Positions 14,994-42,859 of a stretch of DNA of 64,000 nt are shown piece after piece (position 1 is the first letter of the stretch; each line of letters opens with the position of its first letter). The DNA is from Enterobacteria phage vB_EcoM_IME540. The position numbers and the translations under genes are program-made. The notes under the pieces were generated by a model. That model was given only the letters and a program-made list of their open reading frames with translations, had not been told where the DNA came from and did no database searches. The stretch lies in sequence record MT150133.1; one strand, 5' to 3'.

Positions 14994-15596
14994 ATGCTCT
15001 TCTCATTTTTCGATCCCATCGATTACGAATCAAAAACAGTCAAGCCAGATTCCGGCTCATTAACTGATGCCGATGTACTGAGCGTACCGATGACTGATAT
15101 ATTTAGAAACTATAAAGAATATTTTGATAAAGTGGCTAAAAATTATACACTTAAAACATATTATATCAGTGGGGCCCCTCGTCCAGAAGAATTAGCCCAT
15201 CAACTTTATGGTAACGTGCAATTATATTGGGTCCTTTTAATGTGTAACAATATCTATGACCCTTATTACGGCTGGATTACAGGCCAAGAATCTGCGTATC
15301 AAGCAGCTATTCAACGTTATGCTACTGCAGGCGGAAACCAAGTCCTTTATCATGTCAATGAAAAGGGTGAGAAATTCTGGAATCTAGTAAATACTCCGGA
15401 AAATCCTTATACTTGGTACGATAAAGGTGATACAGAAAAACGTTATCCTCAATATGAAGGTCCTTTGGCTGCAGTAGATATTTACGAGGACGCCATTCGT
15501 AAAAATGAATATAAGCGCGAAATAAAGATTATAGACCCTAATGACATCGAGTCCTTTGTTTCCGCTTTAATTAGAGAAATGGAGAAGTCACTCTAA
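14994..15596 (+). CDS. 53: baseplate wedge protein gp53
   Basis: 200 aa MLFSFFDPIDYESKTV...PMTDIFRNYKEYF...YWVLLMCNNIYDPYYGWIT, matches T4 gp53. Confidence 0.85.
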   Translation: MLFSFFDPIDYESKTVKPDSGSLTDADVLSVPMTDIFRNYKEYFDKVAKNYTLKTYYISGAPRPEELAHQLYGNVQLYWVLLMCNNIYDPYYGWITGQESAYQAAIQRYATAGGNQVLYHVNEKGEKFWNLVNTPENPYTWYDKGDTEKRYPQYEGPLAAVDIYEDAIRKNEYKREIKIIDPNDIESFVSALIREMEKSL

Positions 15597-16231
15597 TGTT
15601 TTATTACGTCTATAAAATAACCAATATAATTAATGGTAAATTTTATATCGGTGCTCATAGTACATCAAATATGGATGACGGTTATATGGGCTCAGGTAAA
15701 TTAATTAAACGCGCTATACTAAAATATGGCATTGAAAATTTCAAAAAAGAAATATTAAAATTTGTTGATTCTAAAAAAGAAATGTATGAACTCGAAAAAG
15801 AACTTGTTGTCCTTACTGAAAATTCATACAATTTAAAACCGGGCGGTTCCGGTGGGTTTTTAAAACATGATAACTTTAAAGGCAGGTCCCATAGTCAGAA
15901 AACCAAAGATATTATGAGCGCTAATAACTCAGGCAAAAACAATCCTATGTATGGTAGAAAACGAGACCAACACGGAGAAAAAGCACCTAATTATGGTAAA
16001 AAGTGCTCTGAGGCTAAAAGAAAATTACTTTCTGAAAAATCTAAATCCTATTTTGAAAACCTTCAAACCATAACTAAAAATCTCGGCTTTGGTCCTACAT
16101 CGGTTGAAACTAGATATGTATCAAGACATATTAAAAAGCTAGGATTAGATTTTTATAAATTTAATCGTGATATAACAGAAACTAATGTTTCCATAGTTAG
16201 AAATATTTTAGAACAAAGGAAAGCGCTATGA
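15596..16231 (+). CDS. GIY-YIG homing endonuclease (seg-like) inserted between genes 53 and 5
   Basis: 211 aa; N-terminus MFYYVYKITNIINGKFYIGAHST...GSGK is a close paralog of the segB-like protein; ATGA overlap with gene 5. Confidence 0.8.
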   Translation: MFYYVYKITNIINGKFYIGAHSTSNMDDGYMGSGKLIKRAILKYGIENFKKEILKFVDSKKEMYELEKELVVLTENSYNLKPGGSGGFLKHDNFKGRSHSQKTKDIMSANNSGKNNPMYGRKRDQHGEKAPNYGKKCSEAKRKLLSEKSKSYFENLQTITKNLGFGPTSVETRYVSRHIKKLGLDFYKFNRDITETNVSIVRNILEQRKAL

Positions 16232-17970
16232 TTAACATGTCTGATAATGTAAGTTGGTTCGTCGGTGTGGTTGAAGACCGTATGGACCCACTCCAACAAG
16301 GACGCGTTCGAGTTCGTGTCTGGGGCCTGCATCCTTACGAAAAGGTCCAAGGTCCTGTAAAAGGCCTTCGTACAGAGGATTTACCGTGGATGTCCGTATT
16401 AATGCCTACATCTTCTGCCTCTGTTTCTGGTATCCAAACCGCTATGACTGGTATGGTTCCAGGTACTCAGGTTTATGGGCACTTTCTTGATAAGTGGAAA
16501 TTAAACGGGCTTGTCCTCGGTACATATGGTTCCGCTTCAAGACAAAAGGCTAATCCTAATGAAGGTTTTAGTGACCCGACAGGTCAATACCCACTTTATT
16601 TGGGTAATGATGCTGCAGCACTAAACCGAGGTGGTGAAGTTGGATACGATGCCACTTCTAACGTAATACAAGATGCAAACACCGATGTAGGTATTAACCC
16701 AGACGGTTTGGATTTGAGCCAAGTCAAGCCTGATGATAATCCTAATTTCACAATAGAAAACATGCTTCATCGTGATGAAGGGCTTAGACTGAAGGTATAT
16801 TGGGATACCGAAGGTTATCCTACTATAGGTATAGGCCACCTTATCACACCACAACCTATTAGAGATATGAATCGAATAAACAAAATATTATCTAATCAGG
16901 TAGGACGAGAAGTTAAAGGTAACCCTGGTGCAATATCAATGGATGAGGCTTCTAAATTATTCCAAGAAGACCTTAAAAAAGTCCAAAACGATATAGGTCG
17001 GCATAGTGTTGTAGGTCCTGTTTACAATAAAGAAAACCGTTCAAGACAAATGGCTCTTGAAAACATGGCTTTCCAAATGGGATTAGGTGGATTGGCTAAA
17101 TTCCGTGGAATGCTTAGTGCAATGCTAATAGGCGATTATAAAAAGGCATTTGAGGAAGCTCGTAATTCAGTATGGTTTAACCAAACTAAAGGTCGCGCAT
17201 CAAGGGTGTCAATGATTATCCTCACAGGTAACATGGAATCATATGGTATTATGGCCCCTAAAGAAAGGTCATTTAATGGCCGTTCGTATAGAATGATTCA
17301 AACCTTTGTGGCCCCTACAAATTCAGACCCTGCCGACCCGTGGACTCCAGAAGACACAAGGATTCTTTTTAAAGAACCTGATTCTAGTTATAAAGGCGAA
17401 TATCCATATGTCCAAACCATGCAAACTGAAGGCGGGCATATCCAAGAATTCGATAATACCCCAGGGCAAGAACGATACCGTTTAATCCATCCTACCGGTA
17501 GTTATGAAGAAGTTGCTCCTGACGGACGTAAAACTTCTAAGACGGTAGCCGATGGTTATTATATGACCCAAGGCGATTCAAATACTTATGTTGGTGGTAA
17601 TAATAAGGTCAATATAGGCGGCGATGAAACCTATTATAATATGGCAAACGTTCGTCGTCAAACTGACGGGTCTGAAAGCATCCATATTCGTGGTAATGAA
17701 ACTAAAACAGTAGAAGGTGACGGAACCCTTATTGTTAAAGGAAACGTAACAATTCTTGTCGAGGGTAGTGCTGATATAACTGTTAAGGGCGATGCTAAAA
17801 CATTAGTTGAAGGCAATCATGACTATACCGTAAATGGAAACGTTAAATGGTCTGTAAATGGAAACGTTGATATGACTGTTGCAGGTAATTGGTCTGAAAC
17901 TATGTCAACTATGAGTTCTATTGCATCAGGTCAATATACTATTGATGGTTCGAGGATTGACATTGGCTAA
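16228..17970 (+). CDS. 5: baseplate central spike gp5 with lysozyme domain
   Basis: 580 aa; lysozyme segment GYPTIGIGHLI...; C-terminal VxGxxxV beta-helix repeats. Confidence 0.9.
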   Translation: MINMSDNVSWFVGVVEDRMDPLQQGRVRVRVWGLHPYEKVQGPVKGLRTEDLPWMSVLMPTSSASVSGIQTAMTGMVPGTQVYGHFLDKWKLNGLVLGTYGSASRQKANPNEGFSDPTGQYPLYLGNDAAALNRGGEVGYDATSNVIQDANTDVGINPDGLDLSQVKPDDNPNFTIENMLHRDEGLRLKVYWDTEGYPTIGIGHLITPQPIRDMNRINKILSNQVGREVKGNPGAISMDEASKLFQEDLKKVQNDIGRHSVVGPVYNKENRSRQMALENMAFQMGLGGLAKFRGMLSAMLIGDYKKAFEEARNSVWFNQTKGRASRVSMIILTGNMESYGIMAPKERSFNGRSYRMIQTFVAPTNSDPADPWTPEDTRILFKEPDSSYKGEYPYVQTMQTEGGHIQEFDNTPGQERYRLIHPTGSYEEVAPDGRKTSKTVADGYYMTQGDSNTYVGGNNKVNIGGDETYYNMANVRRQTDGSESIHIRGNETKTVEGDGTLIVKGNVTILVEGSADITVKGDAKTLVEGNHDYTVNGNVKWSVNGNVDMTVAGNWSETMSTMSSIASGQYTIDGSRIDIG

Positions 17971-38973: not shown

Positions 38974-39109
38974 TCTATTATCCCAGGCTGTAATATAAAG
39001 AACCTAAAACCATTATACCATGTGTTTGGTTACAGCGTACATCACGTAGAATTGCGCCTGGGATTGATTATTCTCTTGGAATATGATTTATCAACTGTAT
39101 AACTAAAAA

Positions 39110-39138
39110 CGTCGCAGGCGCAATCCTGCGACTTTCTG
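39110..39138 (+). terminator. terminator hairpin GTCGCAGG-CGCAAT-CCTGCGAC + TTTCT after gene 18
   Basis: Perfect 8-bp stem; A-run before and T-run after. Confidence 0.6.
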
Positions 39139-39141
39139 GTA

Positions 39142-39149
39142 TATAAATA
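39142..39149 (+). promoter_or_regulatory. late-type TATAAATA box immediately upstream of the HNH endonuclease gene
   Basis: Exact consensus only 5 nt before ATG 39155; function uncertain. Confidence 0.35.
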
Positions 39150-39154
39150 TAAGT

Positions 39155-39838
39155 ATGATTACTAATACTCTATTTGAAATACCTATAACAAATCGTAACG
39201 TTTCTGCTTTTAAAAATCTTGGGTATCAAGTTAAAAGTGGGAGCTCCCATTTAATAAAATTAGAAGACTGCCCTGGAAAAATTGCTGTTACGTGTAAATG
39301 TGATAAATGTGGCACTTATTATACTGTAACAAAAGGGCGACTTAATGAAACCAATTCTAAGTTCTGTAAAGAGCATCGTTGGGAAGTCTATTCAGAAACA
39401 AGAAAAGAATATTGGAATTCTGATGAAGGCATAAAAATCCGTAAAACCAAAGGGCCTAAAATTTCTAAGTCTAAAAAAGGTATAAAGATTGAAGCTTGTT
39501 CAGGACCTAAAAACGGAAGATGGAATCCTAACAAATCTGAACGTAATAAATATTATTATTCAGTGAGGTCTTTTACTAATAAGACTTTTAAAGAAGAAGT
39601 TGATAATCTACCAAATAGACATCTAAGCGGGATATGTGGTGTTAAAGGAGCTTATCAATTAGACCATAGGGTATCTATCAAATATGGATTTGAAAATGGC
39701 GTCCCTCCCGAAATAATAGGACACATTTGCAATCTAGAAATGATTCCTTGGGAAAAGAATCGAAGTAAAGATTCTAAAAATAGTATAGATTTAGATATGC
39801 TATTCCATTTAATTGAAGAATATGATAGGAAACACTAA
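39155..39838 (+). CDS. HNH homing endonuclease inserted between genes 18 and 19
   Basis: 227 aa; HNH core QLDHRVSIKYGFENGVPPEIIGHICNLEMIPWEKNRSK; Cys cluster CKCDKCGTYY; no gene at this position in T4. Confidence 0.75.
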   Translation: MITNTLFEIPITNRNVSAFKNLGYQVKSGSSHLIKLEDCPGKIAVTCKCDKCGTYYTVTKGRLNETNSKFCKEHRWEVYSETRKEYWNSDEGIKIRKTKGPKISKSKKGIKIEACSGPKNGRWNPNKSERNKYYYSVRSFTNKTFKEEVDNLPNRHLSGICGVKGAYQLDHRVSIKYGFENGVPPEIIGHICNLEMIPWEKNRSKDSKNSIDLDMLFHLIEEYDRKH

Positions 39839-39841
39839 CTT

Positions 39842-40333
39842 ATGGAACTTACGGATATCACTAGGGCCTTCGAGTCAGGTGACTTTGCACGCCCTAACCT
39901 TTTCGAAGTGGAAATTCCATTTCTGGGTAAAAACTTTAGCTTTAAATGTAAAGCAGCACCTATGCCGGCAGGCATTGTAGAAAAAGTACCGGTTGGCTAC
40001 ATGAACCGTAAAATTAACGTAGCCGGTGACCGTACGTTTGATGATTGGACCATTACCATTTATAACGATGATGCACATGACACCCGTCAAGCAATTGTCG
40101 ATTGGCAGAATCTCTGTCACGGTATGACCAATGAAATTACCGGTGCAGCACCTGCAGAATATAAGAAACAAGCAGTAGTTCGCCAGTTCCATCGTGACGG
40201 CAAGACTGTGACCAAAGAAGTTACAATTTACGGCTTATGGCCTACTAACGTTGGTGAAGTCCAGATGGACTGGGACTCGAATAACGAGGTAGAAACATTT
40301 GAAAGCACATTTGCTATTGACTGGTGGGAATAA
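39842..40333 (+). CDS. 19: tail tube protein gp19
   Basis: 163 aa ...TRAFESGDFARPNLFEVEIPFLGKNFSFKCKAAPMPAGIVEK..., matches T4 gp19. Confidence 0.95.
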   Translation: MELTDITRAFESGDFARPNLFEVEIPFLGKNFSFKCKAAPMPAGIVEKVPVGYMNRKINVAGDRTFDDWTITIYNDDAHDTRQAIVDWQNLCHGMTNEITGAAPAEYKKQAVVRQFHRDGKTVTKEVTIYGLWPTNVGEVQMDWDSNNEVETFESTFAIDWWE

Positions 40334-40362
40334 GTTTTTACTTTTATAGCAAATTATGATAG

Positions 40363-40370
40363 TATAAATA
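40363..40370 (+). promoter_or_regulatory. late promoter TATAAATA upstream of the GIY-YIG gene
   Basis: Exact consensus 31 nt upstream of ATG 40401. Confidence 0.45.
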
Positions 40371-40400
40371 CATTCAAACAATGAAGTCAAGGAGTTTAGA

Positions 40401-40982
40401 ATGTATTGTACTTACTTAACCATATACACGGGGTCTAAACTACCCCGTCGTTATATTGGCTCAACATACGTTGAAAGGATTCTCAAAGAAGGATATAATG
40501 GTTCTGTATTATCCCAAGCATATAAAAAGATTTGGAATCTAGAACGTAAAGAAAATCCGCACCTTTTCAAAACCAGAATTTTATCTTTATTTGAAACCGA
40601 TAAAGAAGCTCGTATAGCTGAGAAAGAGCTTCAAATAAAGTATAATGTAGTTAAATCTAAAAACTATATAAATATGTCATTAGCTCAGCCTGACGGGTTC
40701 TTTGGAATGTCTCGTAAAGGGATTCCAATGAGTGAACATGCCAAACAGCTACAAAGAGATTGTAGGTTAGGTAAAAAGAGGCCTGAACATTCTAAAGCTC
40801 TAAAAGGACGTAAGCGACCAGACCAAGCCAAAGCTATGTCTGGTGAAGGTAATCCGATGTTTGGTAAAGAACATCCGGCTAAAGGCAAAAAGATTAATCA
40901 GCCAAGGATGATTTGCCCTATCTGTGGTGTTGAATCAACTCGTTCGGCTATAACACGTTATCACAAACATGAAAATGAATGA
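40401..40982 (+). CDS. GIY-YIG-type homing endonuclease (seg-like) with NUMOD-like repeats and C-terminal zinc finger, inserted between genes 19 and 20
   Basis: 193 aa; N-terminal YLTIYTGSKLPRRYIGSTY; repeated basic GKKRPEHSKA / GKEHPAKGKK; CPICGV...H. Confidence 0.7.
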   Translation: MYCTYLTIYTGSKLPRRYIGSTYVERILKEGYNGSVLSQAYKKIWNLERKENPHLFKTRILSLFETDKEARIAEKELQIKYNVVKSKNYINMSLAQPDGFFGMSRKGIPMSEHAKQLQRDCRLGKKRPEHSKALKGRKRPDQAKAMSGEGNPMFGKEHPAKGKKINQPRMICPICGVESTRSAITRYHKHENE

Positions 40983-40983
40983 G

Positions 40984-41018
40984 TATAAATAGAATTATCA
41001 AGGAGCTTCGGCTCCTTA
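40984..41018 (+). promoter_or_regulatory. late promoter TATAAATA (40984-40991) plus leader hairpin AAGGAGC-TTCG-GCTCCTT upstream of gene 20
   Basis: Exact consensus, then a perfect 7-bp stem with TTCG loop, then RBS GGAGA. Confidence 0.55.
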
Positions 41019-41039
41019 TCCCATTCATCGGAGACTCTA

Positions 41040-42614
41040 ATGGCAAACTTTAATACAATATTAAGTTTTCTTAAGCCATGGGCTAATGAAGACGAAAAAG
41101 AATATAAACAACAAATTAATAACAATTTAGAGTCTGTCACCGCACCTAAGCTTGATGATGGCGCTCGCGAAATTGAGACACAAGAGCAAAATATTCCTTA
41201 TAATGCTCTTATGCAACAGATGTTTGGTAGTAATGAGCCTGAAGTTAAAAATACCAGGGAACTTATTGATACCTACCGTAATTTAATGAACAACTATGAA
41301 GTCGACAATGCCGTACAGGAAATTGTGTCTGACGCTATTGTCTATGAGGATGATAAAGAAGTAGTTGCATTGAATTTAGACGGGACAGAATTTAGTCAAG
41401 CAATTAAAGATAAAATCTTGGCCGAATTCAGTGAAGTTTTAAACCTTTTAAATTTCCAACGTAAAGGTACTGACCATTTCCAACGCTGGTATGTAGACTC
41501 AAGAATTTTCTTTCATAAAATTATAAACCCTAAAAAAATGAAAGATGGCGTACAAGAGCTTCGTCGCTTAGACCCACGCCAAGTCCAATATATTCGTGAA
41601 ATCGTTACACGTATGGAAGATGGCGTTAAAGTTGTAGACGGATATCGCGAGTTTTTCGTTTATGATACAGGCCATGAAAGTTATTGCGCTGATGGACGCA
41701 TTTATTCAGCCGGGACTAAAGTTAAAATTCCTCGTGCTGCAGTGGTTTATGCTCATTCTGGATTATTAGATTGTTGTGGTAAAAACATCATTGGCTATTT
41801 GCAACGTGCTATTAAGCCTGCAAACCAGCTTAAATTGATGGAAGACGCAATGGTCATCTACCGTATTACACGTGCTCCTGACCGTCGTGTGTTTTATATC
41901 GATACAGGTAATATGCCTTCACGTAAGGCTGCAGCACAAATGCAACATATCATGAACACGATGAAAAACCGTGTGGTGTATGATGCTTCGACAGGTAAAA
42001 TTAAAAACCAACAACACAATATGTCCATGACTGAAGACTATTGGTTGCAACGTCGTGATGGTAAAGCGGTAACAGAAGTTGATACAATGCCAGGTGCTAC
42101 TGGTATGAGTGATATGGATGACGTTCTTTATTTCCGCACAGCACTTTACCGTGCGTTGCGTGTTCCTGAATCACGTATCCCTAGCGAGTCTAATTCTGGT
42201 GTTATGTTTGATGCCGGTACAGCAATCACTCGTGACGAATTAAAATTCTCTAAATGGATTCGTCAACTACAAAACAAATTTGAAGAAATTTTCCTAGACC
42301 CGTTAAAAACAAACCTCATTCTTAAAAAGATTATTACAGAAGATGAGTGGGAAAAGGAAATAAATAATATTAAAGTTACGTTTAACCGTGATAGCTATTT
42401 CAGTGAAATGAAAGATGCTGAAATCATGGAACGCAGAATCAATATGCTAACGATGGCTGAACCATTTATTGGTAAGTATATTTCACATCAAACGGCTATG
42501 AAAGATTTCCTCCAAATGACCGACGAAGAAATTAATCAAGAAGCTAAGCAAATTGAAGAAGAGTCTAAAGAGGCTCGTTTCCAAAACCCAGATGAAGAAG
42601 AAGAGGATTTCTAA
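41040..42614 (+). CDS. 20: portal vertex protein gp20
   Basis: 524 aa (T4 gp20 is 524 aa); conserved position. Confidence 0.95.
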
Positions 42615-42859
42615 TGGAAGATTTAATCGAAGCTATTAAATCAAACGACCTCGTAGCAGTTCGTAAAGCAGCAGCCCCGCTTATCGAATCTCGAGTAACC
42701 GCTTTGATTGAAGCCCGTAAAGCAGAAATTGCTCGCTCCGTTATGATTGAAGGCGAAGAAGCTGACGAAGATGACGAAGACGACGAAAAATCCGATAAAG
42801 CAGATAAGAAAGACAAAAAAGAATCTGACGATGCGGATGATGACGAGGACGACGAATAA
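42614..42859 (+). CDS. 67: prohead core protein gp67
   Basis: 81 aa with poly-acidic C-terminus; TAATG-coupled. Confidence 0.8.

Follow-up and report, generated by a model that had tools for sequence, protein, structure and literature searches.

A probable Seg-type GIY-YIG homing endonuclease cassette between the tail tube and portal genes of a Dhakavirus genome

The spacer between the tail tube gene (gene 19) and the portal gene (gene 20) of this Dhakavirus genome, a JS98-like T4-type coliphage of the JS98 group, likely carries a free-standing homing endonuclease of the T4 Seg class, in which a GIY-YIG nuclease is joined to NUMOD3-type repeats and a C-terminal zinc finger and which would spread by intronless homing. 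The cassette is a well-understood kind of mobile element, and sequence comparisons indicate that its homing target is probably the end of gene 19.

We located the flanking genes by Pfam and PHROG profiles in the window, that is, in the whole analysed stretch of 64,000 nucleotides. Gene 19 occupies 39842-40333 (Pfam Phage_T4_gp19, 2.8e-10; PHROG tail tube, 1.3e-64) and gene 20 occupies 41040-42614 (Pfam Portal_T4, 5e-193, with a strong PHROG match too); 40334-41039 is the entire spacer from the gene 19 stop to the gene 20 start. Its single long ORF (40401-40982, + strand) opens with ATG and encodes 193 amino acids plus a stop. A Shine-Dalgarno sequence, AAGGAG (40389-40394, +), lies 6 nt before the ATG, and an exact T4-type late promoter box, TATAAATA (40363-40370, +), serves the gene. 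An initial annotation, made from the DNA letters, had described a 193-aa seg-like gene with its own late-type promoter box between the tail tube and portal genes, and both the ORF and the box are present as described. Over the surrounding region (39000-42700) the genome shares 99.3% identity with Escherichia phage vB_EcoM_005 and 98.9% with Bp7.

The encoded protein and its domains

The ORF does not reflect chance, since PHROG 314 ('homing endonuclease') matches its product at 1e-29 and 152 database homologues were recovered at E<=1e-3. Curated profiles respond poorly. The general Pfam GIY-YIG model PF01541 gives no match to the 193-aa protein, the SegE_GIY-YIG model PF19835 scores 17.6 bits (E 0.0046) and so falls short of its cut-off of 25, and NCBIfam yields no more than a trace of 'group I intron endonuclease' at 14.5 bits. 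The relatives behave alike: PF19835 matches 3 of 32 and PF01541 a single one at E<=0.01, and most of the 152 homologues have a precomputed NUMOD3 domain and none a GIY-YIG domain.

The fold of the protein is clearer. AF2 models the N-terminal domain with confidence, and this domain has the three-stranded sheet plus helices of the GIY-YIG fold. Its best fold match is the catalytic domain of I-TevI, and the next five are all GIY-YIG nucleases (PD-T4-3, the UvrC N-terminal domain, T4 EndoII, R.Eco29kI and an SLX1 homologue). We read conservation from an alignment of 32 diverse homologues, in which the first ~100 residues are strongly conserved. The catalytic domain (aa 1-100; 40401-40700, +) keeps Y9, Y18-I19-G20, Y32-x-G34-S35, E74 and N91 invariant or nearly so. 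Fifteen columns of the alignment are invariant (Y9, G11, P15, Y18, Y32, G34, S38, E48, F56, E74, N91, A95, G99, G102 and G155), and G20 is conserved in at least 90% of the homologues. In a joint alignment Y9, Y18, G20, E74 and N91 fall on positions Y6, Y17, G19, E75 and N90 of T4 Seg and I-TevI.

A family HMM links the protein to the T4 Seg proteins, namely to SegE (26.7 bits), SegC (25.4) and SegA (19.2), and more weakly to SegB, SegF and SegD. The alignments to the first three span ~90-110 residues and follow the pattern YIG...GYxGS...E...YN(M/L); BLASTP aligns SegE at 38% identity over 90 aa. The profile search that the initial annotation had proposed for GIY-YIG and NUMOD domains has a weak outcome, with curated Pfam matches below threshold; stronger signals come from PHROG 314, the fold and the family HMM against Seg. 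The seg-like GIY-YIG identity itself holds on the modelled I-TevI-like fold, the SegE/SegC/SegA matches and the retained catalytic residues.

Several searches mark how far the family has diverged. Aligned by hhalign to the I-TevI sequence alone, the family matched only over the NUMOD3 segment (probability 19%), with the catalytic domains unlinked. When all PDB sequences were scanned with the family profile by hmmsearch, one match emerged, to the NUMOD3 helix of the I-TevI DNA-binding domain 1i3j (E 0.077). The Arg27 of I-TevI has no invariant counterpart among the 32 homologues: the residue here is R26, in a column that is mostly R/K and in some members N, S or I. T4 SegA-F likewise have no aligned Arg at this position in the joint alignment, and T4 Seg proteins that lack it are experimentally active. 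The His of the T4 Seg 'YIGxHS' motif is absent from the family. We conclude that the protein has a divergent GIY-YIG domain of Seg type, which curated profiles under-detect.

The catalytic domain is followed by basic NUMOD3-like repeats (aa 103-165; 40707-40895, +). Pfam NUMOD3 (PF07460) scores 16.1 bits against a cut-off of 20.4 on the protein itself and matches 26 of the 32 relatives, with a best E of 1.3e-22, and the 1i3j profile match falls here too. The repeated basic motifs noted at the outset are indeed found, as GKKRPEHSK at aa 124, GRKRPDQAK at aa 136 and GEGNPMFGKEHPAKGKK. The C-terminal Cys pair reported along with them corresponds to C172 and C175 and is followed by H188 and H190, forming a C172-x2-C175-x12-H188-x-H190 module (40905-40979, +) that is predicted to be beta-beta-alpha and zinc-finger-like. 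Predicted strands cover residues 169-171 and 178-180 and a predicted helix covers residues 181-191, with block-mean pLDDT of 70-84 over aa 161-190. Pfam zf-C2H2 or zf-BED matches occur in only 2-3 of the 32 relatives, and the H-x-H spacing is atypical for such a finger. The modelled architecture is thus nuclease, NUMOD3 repeats and a small predicted zinc finger, resembling I-TevI in logic and not in detail.

The protein shares with SegE, SegC and SegA of T4 (PF19835) the N-terminal GIY-YIG domain with YIG-x(10-12)-GY-x-GS, the catalytic Glu and the (Y)N(M/L) Asn, followed by NUMOD3-type repeats. The genes of both are free-standing between conserved phage genes, are patchy among relatives and show flanking-marker effects (PMC2988022). 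However, identity to these Seg proteins is only ~29-38% over the domain. The family has Ser in place of the Seg His after YIG, a helix region 5 residues longer, and NMS-x-AQPNGFFG where Seg proteins have NLK-x-GG-x-GG. It also differs by its C-terminal CxxC...HxH finger, by its position at the 19-20 junction, which is empty in T4, and by a cassette that brings its own late promoter, which several T4 seg genes lack. In comparison to I-TevI, the td intron endonuclease (PDB 1ln0, catalytic; 1i3j, DNA-binding), the gene is free-standing and not intron-encoded, and the R27/H31 segment of I-TevI is absent from the alignment. The predicted finger is C-terminal and of C2H2 type, as opposed to Cys4 in the linker of I-TevI, and there is no C-terminal helix-turn-helix.

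Expression signals

The upstream region of the gene can fold into an RNA hairpin (40361-40412, +; dG -13.1 kcal/mol, z -3.3). The late promoter box and the next nine bases make up its 5' arm, the AUG falls within its 3' arm, and most of the Shine-Dalgarno sequence is in the loop. Equivalent hairpins are predicted for orthologues of five other genera (dG -9 to -14.1, z -1.7 to -4.6); in Klebsiella phage KP13MC5-5 the arm sequences differ while pairing is kept, and the Shine-Dalgarno sequence is covered. This conservation rests on folding six sequences singly and reading the arms by eye. A joint RNAalifold prediction for the six upstream regions gave no structure, because indels put the 3' arm out of register. 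A TATAAATA-type box stands at the same place in the orthologues of Pectobacterium phage PM2 and Kosakonia phage 305, and an ATAAATA variant in three others.

A promoter placed within a hairpin has been described for I-TevI, I-TevII, I-TevIII, segB and Aeh1 mobE (PMC2988022). By analogy, we infer a hairpin regulation of the endonuclease gene. In transcripts reading through from gene 19, the hairpin would pair the promoter region with the AUG and block translation. Transcripts from the cassette's own late promoter, starting a few bases past the box, would lack the 5' arm and would be translatable.

Further sequence signals accompany the gene. A third exact TATAAATA (40667-40674, +) lies inside the ORF, where its codons TAT ATA AAT ATG encode the Y-I-N91-M motif; it is also found in Pectobacterium PM2 and could be a chance by-product of coding or an internal late promoter feeding gene 20. 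The gene 20 late promoter, again TATAAATA (40984-40991, +), stands just 3' of the insert and is the same in filled and empty sites. Between this promoter and the Shine-Dalgarno sequence of gene 20, a perfect 7-bp stem closes a UUCG tetraloop (AAGGAGC-TTCG-GCTCCTT; 41000-41017, +). This stem-loop is identical in the empty-site phage WG01, is present in Kosakonia phage 305 too, and could serve as an mRNA 5' stabiliser or a processing signal. In gene 20 itself, the Bp7 record (HQ829472.1) has a 1-nt indel at the equivalent of ~41348, so that the portal gene is annotated there as two CDSs; most likely the indel is a sequencing error in the record.

Insertion at the 19-20 junction and recoding of gene 19

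Alignments with WG01 delimit a 649-bp insertion (40328-40976, +). Its boundaries slide by ~4-6 nt owing to GAAT(A/G)AG at both junctions: WG01 reads TGGTGG-GAATGAGTATAAATAG, and the carrier reads TGGTGGGAATAAG, the insert and then GAATGAGTATAAATAG. The comparison of the 19-20 junction proposed in the initial annotation thus revealed a precise insert, with the site empty in ~45 other Dhakaviruses (WG01, JS98, IME08, MX01 and ~40 more); 3 of the ~45 sequenced carry the cassette. Empty-site Dhakaviruses align in three pieces with 63% coverage and have neither the endonuclease gene nor the ORF upstream of gene 19. The T4 spacer is empty too. The gene is therefore free-standing, present or absent among close relatives and matched by a precise empty site, as is typical of the Seg type.

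The cassette (40334-41039) shows 0 mismatches over 706 bp among this genome, Bp7 and QL01, despite gene 18 differing at 69 (Bp7) and 118 (QL01) positions. The alleles of the ORF between genes 18 and 19 in Bp7 and QL01 have 65% and 41% protein identity to that of this genome.

The end of gene 19 next to the cassette carries a silently recoded patch (codons 143-160; 40268-40321, +), with 14 substitutions relative to WG01, all synonymous. The gp19 protein is 100% identical to that of WG01: each of the 17 codons that differ is a synonymous change, and two of them are TCN<->AGY serine switches. The differences are confined to codons 2-10, by the upstream insert, and 143-164, by the cassette; the central 398 nt of gene 19 are identical to WG01, and gene 20 has one mismatch in 1575 nt. 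Only Bp7, QL01 and vB_EcoM_005, which carry the gene, share the 3' gene 19 haplotype at 100% identity, and all Dhakaviruses without the gene reach at most 92.8% over 154 nt. Within Dhakavirus the recoded haplotype is perfectly linked to the cassette. This linkage, along with an identical cassette in three diverged Dhakavirus backgrounds, indicates recent spread.

A second patch was found in Karamvirus. In comparison to KaAlpha, which lacks the gene, its carrier KMB17 shows 11 synonymous changes packed in codons 143-153; elsewhere in gene 19 only codons 61 and 163 differ, and gene 20 shows hardly any difference. The Karamvirus patch is independent of the Dhakavirus one. The interval common to both genera, codons 143-153, encodes DWDSNNEVETF, and this two-genus footprint makes the final ~60 bp of gene 19 the candidate target. 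Such recoding would be the expected footprint of homing, through protective target-site variants, co-conversion of flanking DNA or both, and the patch at 40268-40321 is a candidate recognition and cleavage region or co-conversion tract. Characterised Seg enzymes frequently cut hundreds of bp away from their own gene (PMC2988022), so the patch could be a co-conversion tract alone. Across genera, no nucleotide in codons 139-164 of gene 19 separates carriers from non-carriers; the cleavage site is consequently placed by inference.

Taken as homing, these patterns would be produced as follows. In a mixed infection with a cassette-less relative, the enzyme would bind DNA with its NUMOD3-type repeats as the putative minor-groove-binding part and cleave the rival's DNA within or close to the conserved 3' end of gene 19, at a proposed target in codons ~143-160 (DWDSNNEVETF...), 10-65 bp from the insertion point. 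Recombinational repair of the break on the cassette-bearing template would then transfer the endonuclease gene to the recipient, together with the recoded part of gene 19 beside it, as intronless homing with co-conversion. In the carrier itself, gene 19 is silently recoded and would presumably remain uncut.

It is unlikely, though the point deserves weighing, that the gene is a decayed or domesticated relative of the Seg genes, with an intact ORF whose product is no active site-specific nuclease and may be kept as a DNA-binding protein or a passenger, protected by the promoter context of gene 20. Such decay would fit the sub-threshold curated scores, the missing invariant Arg27 equivalent and Seg-type His, an endonuclease divergence that parallels host divergence as for a long-resident gene, and the precedent of T4, which holds inactive or poorly expressed homing endonuclease genes such as mobA, I-TevIII and segD (PMC2988022). 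Against it, the 15 invariant columns in 32 diverse homologues include both catalytic Tyr positions as well as Glu and Asn, the signals for expression have been conserved, and the identical cassette travels with its recoded patch through three diverged Dhakavirus backgrounds.

The clustering of the gene 19 substitutions bears on a different alternative, in which the gene is an ancestral resident of the 19-20 junction, lost by precise deletion in most lineages and no longer mobile, and the patches stem from ordinary mosaic recombination. Uniform divergence would confine the substitutions to the 94 nt by the two inserts, with none in the central 398 nt, with a probability of about (94/492)^25. 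Furthermore, carriers make up 3 of ~45 Dhakaviruses, their copies are identical though the surrounding genes differ, and the same kind of patch recurs in Karamvirus. We consider ancestral residence quite improbable for these reasons, even though the gene occupies the same locus in eight genera with identity falling in step with gp19, and the short direct repeats flanking the insert (GAAT(A/G)AG plus TATAAATA) could mediate deletion.

Finally, the 'HNH endonuclease' label of RefSeq (NC_055783, NC_019500, NC_028847 and orthologues) is wrong and the reading behind it has virtually no chance of holding, as it draws on RefSeq product names and the name of PHROG 10820 only, whereas neither Pfam nor NCBIfam gives an HNH match at E<=1, a His-Asn-His/Asn beta-beta-alpha-metal motif is missing from the sequence, the protein is predicted to fold like GIY-YIG nucleases, and UniRef and some GenBank records say 'homing endonuclease', 'intron endonuclease' or GIY-YIG.

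A second predicted hairpin spans the end of gene 19 and the cassette (40309-40354, +). In it gene 19 codons 156-159, which lie in the patch, pair with a 29-nt segment (CAUUUGCUAU...AUAGCAAAU) that occurs in the Dhakavirus cassette only; the orthologues of PM2, Kosakonia 305 and Moon lack it. The whole 131-nt region around it has a z of -2.0.

Distribution, relevance and neighbouring genes

Orthologues with 47-83% identity stand at the 19-20 junction in eight genera: Dhakavirus, Mosugukvirus (Pectobacterium PM2), Kanagawavirus (Kosakonia 305), Jiaodavirus (Klebsiella KP13MC5-5), Karamvirus (Enterobacter KMB17 and five others), Moonvirus (Citrobacter Moon), Lazarusvirus (Acinetobacter Konradin) and Chrysonvirus (Aeromonas avDM12-TAAL). 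Endonuclease identity falls in step with that of gp19 (gp19/endonuclease 94/82, 94/70, 85/66, 82/65, 81/63, 76/49 and 63/47%). This tracking across genera indicates an old and site-faithful lineage, and fits long vertical residence with losses equally well as homing.

Paralogues with 37-41% identity occupy other sites, upstream of the topoisomerase gene 39 or near cef. One, 'EpBp7_0131'-like and ~225 aa long (37-41%), lies directly upstream of gene 39 and overlaps it in EcWhh-1 (901-1578) and Proteus phage PM2 (901-1581; both in extracted-segment coordinates), and the gene 39 paralogue also occurs in other Dhakaviruses and Bragavirus. Bp7, QL01 and vB_EcoM_005 each have a second tblastn match of the endonuclease family in the same genome. 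SegB and the gene 39 paralogues (EpBp7_0131-like in Dhakavirus; Proteus phage PM2) are members of this protein family with 37-41% identity, likewise free-standing in T4-like genomes, but they sit at another genomic site and are longer (~225 aa); presumably they are lineages of different target specificity.

A broader reading, which we advance only tentatively and which may well prove wrong, holds that the gene represents an old Seg-like lineage, separate from SegA-G, which has stayed faithful to the 19/20 junction in no fewer than eight Straboviridae genera. Its enzyme would read the conserved, DWDSNNEVETF-coding end of gene 19 through a module of NUMOD3 repeats and C2H2 finger unseen in characterised phage GIY-YIG enzymes. 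Together with a gp19.1-type HNH-like gene it would bracket gene 19, and two different selfish elements would each have recoded one end of this essential gene, independently of one another.

Genes for Seg-like homing endonucleases are to be expected in T4-like genomes, among which they are unevenly distributed (PMC2993671, PMC2988022), and our result is mostly confirmatory. It goes slightly beyond routine in the invisibility of the protein to curated profiles combined with its wrong RefSeq name, in the C-terminal finger, in the site fidelity across eight genera and in the two-genus footprint. The literature covered, mostly outside subscription journals, contained no description of an endonuclease at the 19-20 junction, and a prior mention is possible. 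The assignment corrects a propagated RefSeq misannotation of a whole family that Pfam GIY-YIG models miss, defines a candidate target of ~30-50 bp at the gene 19 3' end, and would explain the local mosaicism of the tail tube gene in Dhakavirus and Karamvirus phages. Several phages of these two genera are in development for phage therapy, where co-infection could move the cassette and flanking structural-gene sequence. If active, an enzyme with NUMOD3 repeats and a C2H2 finger would add a new specificity to the I-TevI-type toolbox.

The initial annotation had also counted two different homing endonucleases near the tail tube gene, one of them HNH. The GIY-YIG member of this pair is borne out; the other, a 227-aa ORF of the T6 gp19.1 family upstream of gene 19, is HNH-like on weak evidence. 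The suggestion that this part of the structural module is an insertion hotspot is supported. Two inserts bracket gene 19, and both are absent in most Dhakaviruses. The G+C content is 0.32-0.35 in both inserts (18-19 and 19-20) versus 0.41-0.46 in genes 18 and 19. If both ends of the 492-bp gene 19 were indeed recoded by different elements, the locus would offer a natural system for two homing elements that compete or cooperate over a single target gene.

The gene at the 19-20 junction had been called a second GIY-YIG endonuclease, and within the 64-kb window it is the second: a canonical seg-like GIY-YIG gene of 211 aa (15596-16231, +) exceeds the thresholds, with Pfam GIY-YIG at 25.6 bits (cut-off 22.6) and NUMOD3 at 44.3 bits. 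It lies between gp53 (14994-15596) and gp5 (16228-17970), overlapping both by 1-4 nt, and the N-terminus of its product is close to those of T4 SegB and SegD.
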